Origin: an uncultured Candidatus Rokubacteria bacterium
GTDB taxonomy: Bacteria; Methylomirabilota; Methylomirabilia; Rokubacteriales; DASRDR01
Assembly: GCA_963826115.1 (NCBI GenBank)
Contig: CAWGVS010000006.1
Coordinates: 704,001 to 768,000 of the forward strand
Direction: 5' to 3'
DNA length: 64,000 nucleotides
The notes below the pieces were generated by a model. The model ran no database searches, was not told the DNA's origin, and saw only the letters and a list, made by a program, of their open reading frames with translations. Positions 3,395 through 62,491 of the stretch are shown one piece after another (position 1 is the stretch's first letter; every line of letters begins with the position of its first letter). The translations under genes were made by a program, and so were the position numbers.

Positions 3395-4403
3395 TCCGGG
3401 TCCAGGACGTCAGCGCGTCCTACTTCACCCCGGCGGGCCCGGTCGCAGGCGCTGGATCACGTGTCGCTGACGATCCGCGACGACGAGGTGCTCGGCATCG
3501 CGGGCGAGTCGGGGTGCGGCAAGTCGACCCTGATCAAGGTCGTCTACCAGTTCGTCGAGCCGCCCCTCCGGCTCCTGTCCGGGCGCGTCGAGGCGACCGC
3601 GCGCGGCGCGAGCGGCCAGCCCGTCGTGCTGGACGGCCCGGCGCTCCGCCGCGCCTGGTGGCGGTACATCTCCTACATCCCGCAGGGCTCGATGAGCGTG
3701 CTGAACCCGGTGGCGCGGGTGGGCCGCCAGTTCCTGGACGCCGCGGGGGCCTCGTCCGCGTTCGGGAGCCGGGCGGAGCTGGACTCCCGCATCGCCGGCT
3801 ACCTCGCGGAGCTCAACCTCCCGGTCGACGTGCTGCGCGCGTACCCGCACCAGCTGAGCGGCGGGATGCGCCAGCGGGTGATCGTGGCGCTCGCGACGTT
3901 CCTCCACCCGCAGGTGATCCTCGCCGACGAGCCGACGACGGCGCTGGACGTCGTGGTCCAGCGCGGCATCATCACCATGCTGGCCGAGCTCCAGGCGCGC
4001 GAGCGGAACACGCTGGTCATCGTGTCCCACGACATGGGCGTCCACTACCAGCTCGCCGTCGCGCCTCGCCATCATGTACGCGGGGAAGCTGGTGGAGCTG
4101 GCCGACATGAGCGCGCTGGTCGACCGGCCGCTCCATCCCTACACGGCGCTCCTGATCGGGTCGCTGCCGCGGGTCGGCGACCGGGCGCGGCGCGAGGGCA
4201 TCGGCGGCCGGCCGCCGCGGCTCCTCGACCCGCCGCCCGGCTGCCGGTTCGCGGCGCGGTGCCCTCAGACGATGGCCGTGTGCGAGCGCGTCGACCCGCC
4301 GGTCCAGGAGCTGACGCCGGGGCACTGGGTCGCCTGCCACCTCCACGGAGAGCCGGCGCCCGTCACGACGGCGGCCGGCGCGCCCGGGACGGACGCCGCA
4401 TGA
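3391..4403 (+). CDS. ABC transporter ATP-binding protein (DppD-like); frameshifts near 3450 and 4065
   Basis: Walker A GESGCGKST, YPHQLSGGMRQR, ADEPTTALD, HPYT and C-terminal GCRFAARCP. Confidence 0.9.
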
Positions 4404-57679: not shown

Positions 57680-58576
57680 TCACGTGAGCGAGGCGACCGG
57701 GCGCGCGGGTCGCGGCCGCGGCGGGCGGGCGAGTCGCGGGACGTCGCCGTCGAGCGTCGTCCGGTGCATGCGCCGGCGGTGGCGCGTCTCGTCGAACTCG
57801 GTGGCGCAGTGCTGGGTGCAGCGGTTGTCCCAGAGGACGGCGTCGCCCACGCGCCAGCGGTGGCGGTAGACGAACTCGGGGCGCGTGGCCCACTCCTGGA
57901 GGTAGCGGATCAGGTCCCGGCCCTCGCCCTCCGGCAGGCCCTCGACCTCGCAGGCCCAGCGTCCGATGTAGAGCGCGGTCCACCCCGAGCGCGGGTGCTC
58001 CCGCGCGATGGGATGCCACACGTCGGGACGCTGGGCCTTCTGCGCGTCGGTGAGCGGCGCCATGTGCGGGTAGTGGACGTGGTGGAGACGCACCCGGCTG
58101 AAGCACGCCCGCCGGTCGTCGATCACGCGGCGGACGTCCGCGGGCAGGGCGGCGAAGGCGGCGTAGGTGTCCGCGAAGAGCGTGTCGCCGCCCTCGGGCG
58201 GGACCTCGAGCGCGTGGAGGAAGGAGCCCGCGTTCGGGATCGCCTTGTCCTCGCCGTCCGAGTGCCAGCCCCACCCCGCGCGTCGGAGGCCGACGGGCTT
58301 GCCGTTCTCCTCGACGTTCGAGACGACGAAGACCTCCGGCCACTCGGGCAGGTTGAACTCGAGCGGCTCCATGACGTGGAGCGGGCCGAGGCGCCGGCTG
58401 AAGGCGACGTGCTGGGCGGGCGTCATCCGGAGGTCGCGGAAGAGCAGGATGCTGTGGCGGGTCCACGCCGCCTCGATCGCCGCCATCGTCCCCGCGTCGA
58501 GGTCCCGCGCGAGGTCGACGCCGACGACCTCGGCGCCGAAGCTCGGATGGAGCGGCCTGAGCTCGAGGGTCTTCAC
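57680..58576 (-). CDS. TauD/TfdA family Fe(II)/2-oxoglutarate dioxygenase
   Basis: FGAEV.GVDL, WHSDG, GGDTLFAD, WDNRCTQH, R. Confidence 0.92.
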   Translation of the reverse strand: MKTLELRPLHPSFGAEVVGVDLARDLDAGTMAAIEAAWTRHSILLFRDLRMTPAQHVAFSRRLGPLHVMEPLEFNLPEWPEVFVVSNVEENGKPVGLRRAGWGWHSDGEDKAIPNAGSFLHALEVPPEGGDTLFADTYAAFAALPADVRRVIDDRRACFSRVRLHHVHYPHMAPLTDAQKAQRPDVWHPIAREHPRSGWTALYIGRWACEVEGLPEGEGRDLIRYLQEWATRPEFVYRHRWRVGDAVLWDNRCTQHCATEFDETRHRRRMHRTTLDGDVPRLARPPRPRPARPVASLT

Positions 58577-58811
58577 GTGCTGCCAGCCTATCGCCCCGCG
58601 CGGCGCCGTCAACCCCTCGGGTCGACAGGGTTTCGACACGAGGCCCGGTCGCGTCGCCACGGCAGCGCGTCTCGATCGCGCGGTCGATGCGGCAGGACCG
58701 TGGCCGATCGCGCATCGACGGGGCTCTCGATCCGCGCGCAGCCGCCCGAGTCGCGTCCCGTCCCCGCAGCGCATGGAGACTTCGCATGCGGCGCGATCCG
58801 GAGCGGTTTGC

Positions 58812-58840
58812 TTGACTTCACCGGACCCGCTCACTATCGT
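58812..58840 (+). promoter_or_regulatory. Sigma70 promoter TTGACT-N17-TATCGT positioned for a leaderless transcript
   Basis: -10 box ends 6 nt before ATG 58847; no SD in between. Confidence 0.65.
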
Positions 58841-58846
58841 GATGCC

Positions 58847-59350
58847 ATGCCGAACAGGCCGGCGCGGGCTCGCGCGTGGGCGTTGATGTTCAGCGCGGTC
58901 ACGTTGCTCCTCCTGCTGCTCGGCGCGCCACCGACGGTTTCGGCGCATCCCGGCCACGCCGTCGCGCCGGTCGCCGATGCCCCCTGGACCGTTCCGCTTC
59001 CGCCCATTCCCGAGCTGGCCCTCGCTCTCGGGCTCCTGGCGGTCGCGACGGTTGCGCGGCGGGCACGTGGGCCCCGGTGGCTCCCGGTGGTCCTGTCCCT
59101 GCTGCTTGTGATCCTGGCCTGCGAGACAGCCCTTCATTCGGCGCACCATCTGACCGATCCGCGCAAGGCGGAGCACTGCGTCGTCTACTCGGCGTCGCTC
59201 CACCTGGGCGGGCTCGAGGCCTTGCGCGCCACGCCCGAGCTCTCGCGGTCGGGCGCCTTCCTGGACGCCGGGCGCCTCCACGAAGGCCAGCCCTTCGCCC
59301 GGGCCCTCGCCGGCCCGTCGTCTCGCGCCCCGCCCGTCCTCCCCGCCTAG
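58847..59350 (+). CDS. DUF2946/CruR/CutF-like membrane leader protein with C-terminal RAPP arrest motif
   Basis: Signal/TM segments, AHPGH, HSAHH..EHC, ends SSRAPPVLPA*; first gene of a copper-chaperone operon. Confidence 0.72.
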   Translation: MPNRPARARAWALMFSAVTLLLLLLGAPPTVSAHPGHAVAPVADAPWTVPLPPIPELALALGLLAVATVARRARGPRWLPVVLSLLLVILACETALHSAHHLTDPRKAEHCVVYSASLHLGGLEALRATPELSRSGAFLDAGRLHEGQPFARALAGPSSRAPPVLPA

Positions 59351-59481
59351 CTCGTTCCCTCCGTTACTGGCTGACGTCCCGCTCGTCCGGATCCCGGTTC
59401 TGCCCGGGGGCCGGATACCCGGAACGTCCGAGTCCCGGGTCCCTCGACCCGGATGGCGTGCGATCGGAAGGGAGCCGGGGC

Positions 59482-60099
59482 ATGACCGGCGAGGTGCTGT
59501 GGGTGGCGTCGATGCGGCGTTCCGTCTGGCTCGGGTTCGTGGCCGCGAGCCTGGCCGCAGCTGCCGTGGTCTCGGCGGCCGGGCCGTTCAAGAGCGGCGT
59601 CCTCGAGCCGGCGCACCCGGCGCCCGACTTTGCGCTGCCGGCGTCCGACGGCTCGACCTTCCGTCTCCGTGATCAGCGCGGGCGGGCGGTGGTGCTCTTC
59701 TTCGGCTACACCTTCTGCCCCGACGTGTGCCCCCTGACGCTGTCCGAGATGGCGCAGGTCCGGAGCCAGCTCGCCGCGCGGGCCGCGCGGCTCCGGGTGG
59801 TGTTCATCACGGTGGACCCCGAGCGGGACACGGTCGAGCGGCTGCGCGCGTACGTCGGCGCGTTCGACCGCAGCTTCCTCGGGCTCACGGGGAACCCGGA
59901 TGCCCTGGCGCGCGTCCGGCAGGCCTACGGCGTGGTCGCCGAGAAGCGGACCGTCGCCGGCACGAAGGCCGCGTACCTCATCGACCACTCCGCGTTCGCG
60001 TACGTCATCGATCCCGAGGGCCGGCTCCGGCTGATGTTCCCCTTCGGGACGTCGATCGACGACATGACCCACGATCTGACGCTGCTGCTCGGAGGATGA
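59482..60099 (+). CDS. SCO family copper chaperone
   Basis: FFGYTFCPDVCP, ITVDPERDT, YLIDHS. Confidence 0.95.
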   Translation: MTGEVLWVASMRRSVWLGFVAASLAAAAVVSAAGPFKSGVLEPAHPAPDFALPASDGSTFRLRDQRGRAVVLFFGYTFCPDVCPLTLSEMAQVRSQLAARAARLRVVFITVDPERDTVERLRAYVGAFDRSFLGLTGNPDALARVRQAYGVVAEKRTVAGTKAAYLIDHSAFAYVIDPEGRLRLMFPFGTSIDDMTHDLTLLLGG

Positions 60100-60103
60100 C
60101 GCC

Positions 60104-60619
60104 ATGCGTGTCGCGATGCCGCTGGTCGGTTCACTCGCGGTCGCCCTGACGATCGTGGGGGGCGGAACCGCACTCGCCCAGTCCCCGCCGCCCGGGACGA
60201 GTCCGATCCAGCTGAGCCAGGCCTGGGCGCGCCGTGCGCCGATGATGGGCCAGCCCGGGTCCGGCCAGGGCTCGACGGGCTCCGGCCACGCGCACGGCCA
60301 GGCCGGTGGGTCCGGGAACGGGGCCGTGTACGTCCTGATCCAGAACCGGGGCCGCGAGGCCGACACGCTGCTCGGCGCGACCTCGGACGCCGCCACGACG
60401 GTCGAGCTCCACGAGACGCGTCAGGAGGGCGGGGTGATGCGGATGCGGCCGCTGCCGAAGATCGACGTTCCCGGCGGCGGGCGGATCGAGATGAAGCCGG
60501 GCGGTCAGCACATCATGCTCCTCGGGCTCACGCGGGACCTCCATCCCGGCGACAGGGTGACCGTGCGGCTCCGGTTCGAGAAGGCCGGCGAGCAGACCGT
60601 CGAGGCGGAGGTCCGCTAG
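60104..60619 (+). CDS. Copper chaperone PCu(A)C
   Basis: AWAR, GAVY, ELHET...MRM, KPGGQHIML. Confidence 0.93.
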   Translation: MRVAMPLVGSLAVALTIVGGGTALAQSPPPGTSPIQLSQAWARRAPMMGQPGSGQGSTGSGHAHGQAGGSGNGAVYVLIQNRGREADTLLGATSDAATTVELHETRQEGGVMRMRPLPKIDVPGGGRIEMKPGGQHIMLLGLTRDLHPGDRVTVRLRFEKAGEQTVEAEVR

Positions 60620-60626
60620 GGTCGTG

Positions 60627-61058
60627 ATGGGGCGCGGGCGTCGGCTCTGGATCGCCGCGGCCGTCGGGGCCGGACTCGTGACCCTGGCGATCGTGGGCTG
60701 GGCGGCGCTCGCGCCGCTGCCCGCGATGCCGCGGGAGCGCGTGTACGTGATTCCCCGGGGGACCGGGGCGCGACAGGCGGCCGGGCAGTTCGTCTCGCCC
60801 ATCCCGTCCCACATTCACCTCTGGGTCGGACTCCAGGACGTGCTGGTGCTCCGGAACGAGGACGACGTGCCGCAGTCGTTCGGGCCGATCCAGCTGCGCC
60901 CGCAGCAGACGTACCGGGTCCCCTTCCAGGTGCCCGCGACGTTCGACTTCGCCTGCTCGGCGCACGAGGACGGCCAGGTGGCGATCATCGTGGAACGCGC
61001 GCCTGTGCGGGCCTGGGAGCGCCTGCGCTGGCGACTCATCCGCCTGACCTACCAGTGA
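60627..61058 (+). CDS. Membrane-anchored cupredoxin-like hypothetical protein
   Basis: N-terminal TM helix; LVLRNED...FDFACSAHEDG (C-x2-H loop). Confidence 0.6.
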   Translation: MGRGRRLWIAAAVGAGLVTLAIVGWAALAPLPAMPRERVYVIPRGTGARQAAGQFVSPIPSHIHLWVGLQDVLVLRNEDDVPQSFGPIQLRPQQTYRVPFQVPATFDFACSAHEDGQVAIIVERAPVRAWERLRWRLIRLTYQ

Positions 61059-61951: not shown

Positions 61952-62038
61952 GGTGGCCCGGTGACGCCGTCAGTACTGCCGACATCCGACGCGAGAAGAT
62001 CCGTCACTCCGCGCTACTGCATCCAGGAGGTCGGACGC

Positions 62039-62491
62039 ATGACGATGACCCATGATCCCGTCGTGGACCGGTCCGCGGTCGCTCCGCACCAGGCCCGTCC
62101 GAGCCTTCCGTTCCGCCTTCGGCGGGGATGGCTCGGTCTGGGGCCGGCTCTCCTGGCTCTCGGCCTCGTGCCCGGCCTCGCCTGGGGACATGCCGCCCTC
62201 GTGCGCTCGACGCCGGCGCAGCGGGCGATGCTCGCGCGCTCACCCGACCGCGTGCGGCTGTGGTTCAATGAGCCGCTCGAGGCCAAGTTCGCGACCGTGT
62301 CGGTGTGGGATGCCAAGGGGGGCCAGGTCGATCAGCAGGACGGCCTCGTGGGAGCGGACGATCCCAAGACGCTGTCCGTGGGCGTCCCTCTTCTCGGCCC
62401 CGGAACATACACCGTCAAGTACCGGGTGCTCTCGGTCGACGGTCACGTGGTGGAGGGCTCGTTCCGGTTCACCGTGCGGTCATCGCCGTGA
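62039..62491 (+). CDS. copC: Copper resistance protein CopC
   Basis: AWG-HAALVRSTP, LWFNE, YRVLSVDGHVVEG; start approximate. Confidence 0.9.
   Translation: MTMTHDPVVDRSAVAPHQARPSLPFRLRRGWLGLGPALLALGLVPGLAWGHAALVRSTPAQRAMLARSPDRVRLWFNEPLEAKFATVSVWDAKGGQVDQQDGLVGADDPKTLSVGVPLLGPGTYTVKYRVLSVDGHVVEGSFRFTVRSSP

Follow-up and report, generated by a model that had tools for sequence, protein, structure and literature searches.

A conserved leader gene at the head of a copper operon

The window, a 64,000-nucleotide (nt) stretch of DNA from an uncultured Candidatus Rokubacteria bacterium, carries on its forward strand an open reading frame (ORF) of 167 amino acids (aa) followed by genes for a SCO1/SenC copper chaperone (SCO), a PCu(A)C copper chaperone, and a CopC-domain protein (Table 1). 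We conclude that this ORF, which ends in Arg-Ala-Pro-Pro (RAPP) four codons before a TAG stop, is a genuine, conserved, and unannotated gene and probably a regulatory leader; the conservation data rule out a chance ORF. The SCO, PCu(A)C, and CopC genes had been named in a preliminary description of this DNA, and their Pfam matches bear this out. A cytochrome c gene follows CopC on the same strand as the leader, and a TauD-family gene lies upstream of the leader in divergent orientation. An Rfam search of positions 58500-59700 at E ≤ 1 matched no families.

Table 1. Features of the leader and the operon behind it (positions are those of the window)
Feature	Position	Strand	Evidence
Sigma-70-like promoter TTGACT-N17-TATCGT	58812..58840	+	scan; hexamers kept in L001 and L002; arrangement in 15/22 loci
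Leader (upstream) ORF, 167 aa, putative divergent CruR/CutF-like RAPP arrest-peptide gene	58847..59350	+	ORF call, homologs, conservation
Signal peptide, aa 1-33, ending V-S-A, plus His34 as predicted first mature residue	58847..58948	+	helix 5-26, alignment columns, AxA/H in relatives
Two transmembrane (TM) helices, aa 55-72 and 78-102, with basic loop RRARGPR between them	59009..59152	+	AlphaFold2; R77 kept in 73/88
Candidate metal site at outer end of second TM helix: E93 H97 S98 H100 H101 D104 C111 H119	59123..59203	+	conservation
Spacer C111-R160, fixed length of 48 residues, poorly conserved sequence	59180..59323	+	spacing in relatives
Predicted strand complementary to the Shine-Dalgarno sequence (anti-SD), pairing with SCO SD and ATG; covers RAPP codons and codons just before	59316..59336	+	pair probabilities 0.82-0.91
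Predicted RAPP arrest motif R160 A161 P162 P163, codons CGC GCC CCG CCC	59324..59335	+	conserved in homologs
Intergenic region leader-SCO, 131 nt, first half C-rich and G-poor	59351..59481	+	base composition
Anti-SD of the preliminary description, TTCCCTCCG, alternative and weaker	59355..59363	+	-18.6 kcal/mol, 0.01 of SD pairing
Shine-Dalgarno (SD) sequence GGAAGGGAG, spacer, and ATG of SCO gene	59465..59484	+	
SCO1/SenC copper chaperone gene	59482..60099	+	PF02630, E 3.3e-43
PCu(A)C copper chaperone gene	60104..60619	+	PF04314, E 1.5e-34
Conserved 144-aa protein without a family	60624..61058	+	no Pfam match; amicyanin-like TIGR02657, E 0.003, far below cutoff
VKOR-family protein, 298 aa	61055..61951	+	PF07884, E 1e-19
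CopC-domain protein, true start probably further in	61961..62491	+	PF04234, E 5.2e-27

Conservation was assessed in a set of 128 relatives, which combines close homologs with cluster representatives of an HMMER scan (120 in the full scan at E ≤ 1e-3) and excludes the window's own duplicate, P0002. The nine close homologs, at 47 to 61% identity, keep RAPP, the core FACETALHSAHHLNDPKKAEHCAVYSASLHL, and the Ala/His junction after the signal peptide, and RAPP is invariant in 10/10 close homologs. Across the larger set, HxxHH is found in 127 of the 128 relatives, the exception (P0104) being an unrelated repeat protein; 127/128 keep HxxHH together with a Cys, which stands exactly 9 residues after HxxHH in 123. 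R[A/G/S]PP follows the Cys in 118/128, lying 1 to 7 residues from the end in 113 of these, and the ten relatives without it appear by eye to be truncated or frameshifted. The Cys-to-Arg separation is 47 to 49 residues in 116/118 (48 in 100 of them), with no conservation of the spacer sequence itself. CxxC occurs anywhere in just two of the 128; the leader has C111-V-V-Y114, and the residue at the +3 position is Ala, Tyr, Phe, or Leu in the relatives. The expectation of the preliminary description that RAPP would be conserved, and its remark that CxxC is absent, thus both stand.

The comparison of loci covers 22, i.e., the window and 21 related copies (L002, L004 to L022, and L028). All 21 related copies show the full architecture, and their Cys-to-Arg separation is 47 to 48 residues in every case. 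One further homolog, L001 (positions 3617-4140 of a named metagenome-assembled genome record), ends after HSAHHLNDPKQAE and is followed by unrelated DNA, possibly due to an insertion or mis-assembly; it was excluded from all counts. On the opposite strand of L008, there is a second leader-like ORF (a 224-aa open frame with HGVHHL ... C ... GRAPP), divergent and head to head with the main copy, and likewise excluded.

The family recurs within the phylum, Methylomirabilota. A search with alignment A1 gave matches in 23/61 related genomes, and one with alignment A2 (88 full-length members, described below) matched 69 of the 151 sampled genomes of the phylum at E ≤ 1e-4, including one flagged as unpublished (G119). 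The A2 matches fall in 51 of 98 good-quality genomes and in 57 of 104 genomes from the two families of the window's order. Scans of genome and metagenome contigs with peptide patterns taken from A1 returned one locus each.

The genes behind the leader differ among loci. SCO followed by PCuAC is found in the window, L002, and L004. A TonB C-domain protein followed by a receptor plug is found in L006, L009, L011, L012, L018, and L021, and a secreted protein of ~330 to 370 aa, unassigned to any family and followed by CopC where the flank reaches that far, in L007, L010, L014, L015, L017, and L020, and by eye in L005, L022, and L028. CopC/CopD lies downstream in L013 and a BBP2 porin in L016 (by eye also in L019), and the downstream gene of L008 is of uncertain type. 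The SCO/PCuAC context foreseen in the preliminary description therefore holds as far as the leader heads copper-related operons, but SCO/PCuAC itself accounts for only 3/22 loci.

The secreted protein of the third type is the first gene after the leader, regularly precedes CopC, and begins AHG[LM][AV]GKRFFPATL..DDPFV[AS]DEL. It has no Pfam match at 1e-5 and may be an undescribed outer membrane or periplasmic copper protein. A second full paralog of the leader in the window's own genome, L028 1469-2035 (G000 contig C4:196868-197434), heads a secreted protein of this kind (~330 aa, HGLAGRRFFPATLVIEDPFVADEL...), whose relatives likewise lack a Pfam match at 1e-5, and then a CopC-like gene. A third, weaker leader match in the same genome (G000:C5:64239-64805) contains an in-frame TAG.

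Two further genes of the window's operon deserve mention. The gene for the 144-aa protein, between those for PCu(A)C and VKOR, is present at the same position in L002. The VKOR-family protein carries a CPVC motif after its VKOR domain, which suggests a fused thiol-redox partner for the SCO/PCuAC cysteines within the copper chaperone operon.

The promoter lies at the place given in the preliminary description, with TTGACT at 58812-58817 and TATCGT at 58835-58840 separated by 17 nt and ending 6 nt 5′ of the ATG at 58847. It is the sole promoter-like site in 58400-59700 (1 found versus 0.0 expected from shuffles). Both hexamers are kept in L001 and L002, with a variable sequence between them. A strict pattern (T[TC]GAnn, 16 to 19 nt, [TG]AnnnT, 5 to 9 nt, and then an ATG or GTG in frame where a start is expected) was matched in 15 of the 22 loci, while the background rate predicts 0.016 per locus. 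This recurrence of a promoter abutting the start codon supports the earlier proposal of a leaderless mRNA. The gene caller of the protein collection starts the leader at M14 (P0002, 154 aa), so that the leaderless start is inferred. The stretch ahead of M14 provides the basic n-region needed by the signal peptide and aligns with the homologs. On these grounds, ATG 58847 without a 5′ leader appears to be the best-supported start. A check of public sequencing runs listed no RNA run, and all of the DNA runs listed had small shares (0.20 or less).

At nine loci (L006, L008, L009, L011, L012, L015, L017, L018, and L022), we noted by eye another element, GGAAC[CT] and (C)GTT separated by 16 to 17 nt, ~45 to 60 nt upstream of the leader ATG. 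It resembles a promoter for an extracytoplasmic function (ECF) sigma factor, overlaps the sigma-70-like promoter abutting the ATG, and is absent from the window. The TonB- and CopC-type loci may therefore have two promoters.

Leader protein and its relation to DUF2946

The layout of the 167-aa protein was as the preliminary description had it, with VSA/HPGH at the end of the signal-like segment, HSAHH-x7-EHC at aa 97-111, and RAPP near the C terminus. An AlphaFold2 model (mean pLDDT 69.7, pTM 0.37), used for helix positions alone, places helices at aa 5-26, 55-72, and 78-102, and the latter two correspond to the two further hydrophobic segments noted earlier. The positive-inside rule would place the basic loop between them in the cytoplasm and both ends of the hairpin outside.

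Residue conservation was read from alignment A2, whose 88 members were picked by a regular expression for a RAPP-like end plus HxxHH, making the selected columns invariant by construction. Among the columns outside this selection, C111 is kept in 88/88, E93 in 82/88, H119 in 77/88, and D104 in 74/88. The A33 column is Ala in 78/88 and the H34 column His in 76/88, and an AxA/H site is present in 19 of the 20 related loci scanned. The His/Cys metal motif proposed earlier is thus upheld for HxxHH and the Cys, but not for the His of "EHC" (H110), which is conserved in only 19/88. The downstream gene context and the nature of the candidate ligands point to copper as the metal. Beyond this site, disorder is predicted for the spacer and for the C-terminal 45 residues. 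The CruR toeprint described in PMC12992588 suggests, by analogy, that at the predicted RAPP arrest the P site would hold P162 and the A site P163.

The spacing of these elements ties the leader to DUF2946 (PF11162), which is described in PMC9426467 as defined by CxxC and RAPP 45 residues apart. In its prototype CruR, the corresponding residues are C90-x-x-C93 and R139, and the 48 residues between C111 and R160 reproduce the CruR C90-to-R139 ruler. From this identity, C111 would be the counterpart of the first Cys of CxxC, with Y114 in place of the second. The leader further shares with DUF2946 a C-terminal RAPP, a fixed Cys-RAPP spacing, an export signal, a place at the head of a copper operon followed by a long intergenic region, and homology; it lacks a match to the PF11162 profile, and it lacks CxxC.

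The homology was found by way of intermediates, namely a one-helix sister family and an ORF of genome G041. A six-frame search with PF11162 passed the cutoff in 1 of the 61 related genomes, G041, where the passing ORF (L023) is shorter and one-helixed with the same HSVHHL ... C-P-V-A-A-A ... GRAPP layout; the A2 profile matches this ORF directly at E 2.8e-9. The one-helix family (alignment A3) comprises 148 proteins. Among the 120 of them that were listed, 117 combine a RAPP-like end and HSxHH with no CxxC, the Cys-to-Arg gap is 48 in 116/116, and 17 carry PF11162. Alignment of A2 with A3 by hhalign gave a probability of 98.9% (E 1.8e-17) over aa 68-167 of the window's protein. In the ESM Atlas, hypothetical clusters of Methylomirabilota came first and a DUF2946 cluster came at rank 22 with a score of 0.83, which is a lead only. 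DUF2607 (PF10795) matched 3 of the 88 A2 members, with a best E of 1.8e-5.

Several results weigh against placing the leader within DUF2946. PF11162 has no match to the leader protein at E ≤ 0.1 and touches just 3/88 A2 members, with a best E of 0.049. The six-frame search of the window's genome (G000) found no match at E ≤ 0.01, and Pfam and NCBIfam searches of the leader ORF returned only sub-threshold membrane-protein noise. Taken together, the sequence comparisons indicate that the leader is a divergent branch of the CruR/CutF superfamily without CxxC, centered on Methylomirabilota. The likeness to CruR and CutF, which the preliminary description had offered as an analogy, goes further than that, given the identical Cys-to-RAPP ruler and the profile link to DUF2946-positive proteins.

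Arrest codons, SCO ribosome binding site, and a possible switch

RNA pairing was analyzed in 20 loci, L018 and L021 having been dropped for want of a convincing start codon for the downstream TonB gene; all of the structures are predictions. In the window, a wider fold pairs the SD, spacer, and ATG of SCO with the RAPP codons and the codons just before them, a segment that would fall within the footprint of an arrested ribosome. The RAPP zone takes 0.65 of the SD pairing there in the 20-locus ensemble analysis. Over all 20 loci, pairing of the SD with a 28-nt stretch surrounding the first Pro codon has a mean probability of 0.53, and the value is at least 0.45 in 12 of them, despite intergenic regions ranging from 37 to 157 nt.

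The third base of the first Pro codon is A or U in 13/22 loci versus 40 of 353 other Pro codons of the same ORFs (Fisher P = 4e-7), and the second is CCC in 18/22. Cognate duplexes are more stable than non-cognate ones (-22.1 versus -19.6 kcal/mol, with 9 of 20,000 permutations as good, and -17.3 kcal/mol for an upstream coding control window), although the loci are kin, so that both the permutation and the Fisher figures overstate independence. At the loci where this third base is predicted to pair with the SD region, four have a U-A pair, three A-U, and one G-C. The pairing between the SD and the RAPP codons is thus predicted to recur and co-vary across loci.

We consider it probable that the leader is an arrest leader of the CruR/CutF type that controls its operon after transcription has started. 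That the output step is occlusion of the SD by the arrest codons has, in our estimate, about an even chance. That the ribosome arrests, that copper is the ligand, how the protein lies in the membrane, and which way control runs we infer from the features above, and the switch might work as follows. The nascent chain, translated from a leaderless mRNA, would be inserted co-translationally, with the signal peptide cleaved first and the helical hairpin following. Cleavage would leave His34 at a free N terminus outside the membrane, and the hairpin would return the chain so that His34, E93, H97, H100, H101, and C111 lie at the outer face. With the 48-residue spacer, the metal site would have just emerged when the ribosome reaches R160-A161-P162-P163 and arrests. 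The arrested ribosome would then hold the anti-SD in its mRNA channel, freeing SCO and the genes behind it for translation, because the arrest codons would otherwise pair with the SD and ATG of SCO. Metal, most likely copper, at the outer site would alter the pull on the chain and thereby the duration of arrest, and Rho termination may add to SD occlusion or replace it. As to polarity, we guess at the one reported for CruR, with copper shortening the arrest and so turning the operon off, since the downstream genes acquire or deliver copper.

A more specific form of this proposal, which we put forward tentatively and rate somewhat below an even chance, would have one set of nucleotides serve as both arrest site and anti-SD. 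The two Pro codons of RAPP, with the next two or three codons, would be selected synonymously (CCU or CCA, then CCC) to pair with the GGAGG of the next gene, and ribosome occupancy of the arrest site would itself be the switch. The sensor would be a three-helix membrane module in which the N-terminal His, HSxHH, and one Cys form a histidine-brace-like copper site.

Other folding results count against SD occlusion. The fold of 59320-59490, a check that the preliminary description had called for, is no better than that of shuffled sequences (z = -0.35, with 67/200 shuffles folding at least as well). Masking the footprint of the arrested ribosome raises the mean unpaired SD only from 0.17 to 0.26 (0.18 with a control mask), and in the window, the unpaired fraction drops from 0.34 to 0.20 as further C-rich segments replace the masked one. 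RAPP and the SD pair little or not at all in 6/20 loci (L004, L009, L016, L022, L028, and L013), and the SD of L013 pairs with the next 30 nt instead.

The strongest rival, which we regard as unlikely but deserving of attention, keeps the same leader and gives it a transcriptional output as in CruR, in which the arrested ribosome shields the RNA, and relief of arrest lets Rho load on the C-rich intergenic region and terminate before SCO. CruR is reported to work in this way with an intergenic region of 162 nt (PMC9426467), the window's region is 131 nt, and long intergenic regions (85 to 157 nt) are found in 15 of the 20 loci. From RAPP to 60 nt past the stop codon, the sequence is C-rich and G-poor in all 20 loci (C 43 to 51%, G 17 to 34%; 47% and 28% in the window). 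However, the body of the leader ORF is also richer in C than in G (~42 versus 33%), so that the skew is only modestly local, and five loci (such as L014, L015, L017, and L022) have intergenic regions of 37 to 50 nt, not long enough to hold a separate rut site. Rho termination also has no need for a co-varying SD pairing. The two outputs could act together.

An improbable reading would have the protein act mainly in its mature form, as a membrane copper-binding chaperone or sensor working with SCO, PCuAC, or CopC, with RAPP being incidental or slowing translation for insertion. A 167-aa protein with two TM helices could indeed also function when mature, which is a point against a leader that acts by arrest alone, and the N-terminal module (signal peptide, mature N-terminal His in 76/88, and extra helix) is conserved here and absent from the one-helix sister family, and hence dispensable for a bare arrest leader. 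Against this, all that is invariant apart from the ligands is R-A-P-P together with a spacer of fixed length and free sequence, features that fit co-translational sensing rather than a folded protein, as does the predicted disorder of the C-terminal 45 residues; moreover, the gene always comes first and heads unrelated copper operons.

The switch favored in the preliminary description, a helix of TTCCCTCCG and CCCCG (59341-59345) with the SCO SD, CGGAAGGGAG (59465-59474), and CGGGG (59476-59480) that a ribosome stalled at RAPP would melt, now seems the least probable reading of all: these segments are present, their complementarity is real (-18.6 kcal/mol), and TTCCCTCCG could capture the SD once the RAPP codons are occupied, which would explain why masking does not free the SD in the window, but the helix takes only 0.01 of the SD pairing (the RAPP zone takes 0.65, or ~0.9 in the wider fold), is weaker than the duplex with the RAPP codons (-23.1 kcal/mol) and those with two other intergenic segments (-22.5 and -22.6 kcal/mol), lies 25 to 33 nt beyond the P-site codon and so outside the footprint of the arrested ribosome, and is not conserved, the closest DNA relative, L002, having another sequence at 59355-59363. 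The preliminary description thus holds in substance but picked the wrong helix as the one that matters.

Comparison with known systems

The class of RAPP copper leaders is already published, and the window's leader is probably a new His-rich, one-Cys form of the CruR/CutF switch. RAPP and RGPP ORFs shorter than 300 aa have been surveyed in 52,895 genomes, with PCu(A)C, YcnI, and TonB receptors being enriched downstream, and arrest was demonstrated experimentally for CruR and seven RAPP/RGPP proteins of Streptomyces lividans (PMC12992588). As with the leader described here, these proteins are small and exported or membrane-bound, carry RAPP near the C terminus, and are encoded upstream of metal genes. 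Among them, SLIV_18480 of S. lividans, which arrests in vitro, contains several membrane helices together with a predicted His/Met copper site; compared by description only, it differs in having four helices and a 3His+Met site. The text of that survey available to us names neither the family of the window's leader nor Methylomirabilota.

CruR (Bp2923) of Bordetella pertussis, the prototype of PF11162, is the closest parallel. It, too, is a small exported protein whose gene comes first in a copper operon that has a long intergenic region, with RAPP 3 to 4 residues from the C terminus and the same distance from the first Cys to Arg (PMC9426467), and relatives of the window's leader also head TonB/receptor operons. 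Unlike CruR, the window's leader lacks CxxC, the second Cys being replaced by Ala, Tyr, Phe, or Leu (Y114 in the window); it has HSxHH at the end of a membrane helix, 9 residues upstream of the Cys; and it carries an added module of a signal peptide, an N-terminal His, and an extra helix, bringing it to 167 aa versus 145. It also escapes PF11162 and has a leaderless promoter arrangement. The output may differ as well, as the arrest codons are the predicted pairing partner of the SD in the window, whereas CruR is reported to act through Rho (PMC9426467).

CutF of Rhodobacter capsulatus is similar in another respect: it is a nascent exported sensor with ~45 residues from the metal site to a C-terminal Pro motif, and the stall at this motif melts the RNA shielding the next ribosome binding site (PMC9973294; preprint 10.1101/2025.02.05.636593). 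It differs in having CxxxC and a PPP-type motif that needs EF-P, and in turning on a detoxifying oxidase at high copper. The two systems have been reported to respond in opposite ways, with copper relieving the arrest of CruR and thereby turning uptake genes off (PMC9426467) and prolonging that of CutF, turning detoxification on (preprint 10.1101/2025.02.05.636593). A survey of proteins shorter than 150 aa described 29 "CutF-like" clusters, in which the sites consist of Cys, His, or both and the neighbors are TonB-like or PCuAC-like, few of them outside Pseudomonadota, Actinomycetota, and Bacteroidota (PMC9973294); its His-only clusters adjoin HupE/UreJ genes, not copper genes. Owing to this length limit, as described there, a leader family of 157 to 200 aa would have been filtered out. 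The leaders ApdA, ApdP, and SecM are more distant parallels, in which arrest at RAPP or RAGP at the C terminus of an exported leader controls translation of the next gene; they monitor Sec or YidC activity, precede secretion genes, and have neither a metal site nor a fixed ligand ruler.

Our literature search found no description of the HSxHH/one-Cys family or of how it is spread in Methylomirabilota, none of the leaderless arrangement or an arrest-codon anti-SD, and no statement of a design rule in which arrest codons double as anti-SD, although the supplements of these papers may list members of the family. Annotation pipelines have left the gene "hypothetical" and probably misstarted. The use of arrest codons as the anti-SD would be a simple and testable RNA design, and if it holds beyond this lineage, it could apply generally to how RAPP leaders are built. 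The family belongs to an uncultured soil phylum and stands before at least four kinds of copper operon, among them the SCO/PCuAC route, which supplies copper to respiratory oxidases. It offers a natural test of what is essential in these sensors, i.e., the ruler and RAPP versus the chemistry of the site. Metal sensing by a nascent chain through arrest has been worked out for CruR and CutF only, both with paired cysteines; the family of the window's leader keeps the same ruler and arrest motif with another ligand set, which is His-rich with one Cys and probably an N-terminal His, and with another membrane architecture.

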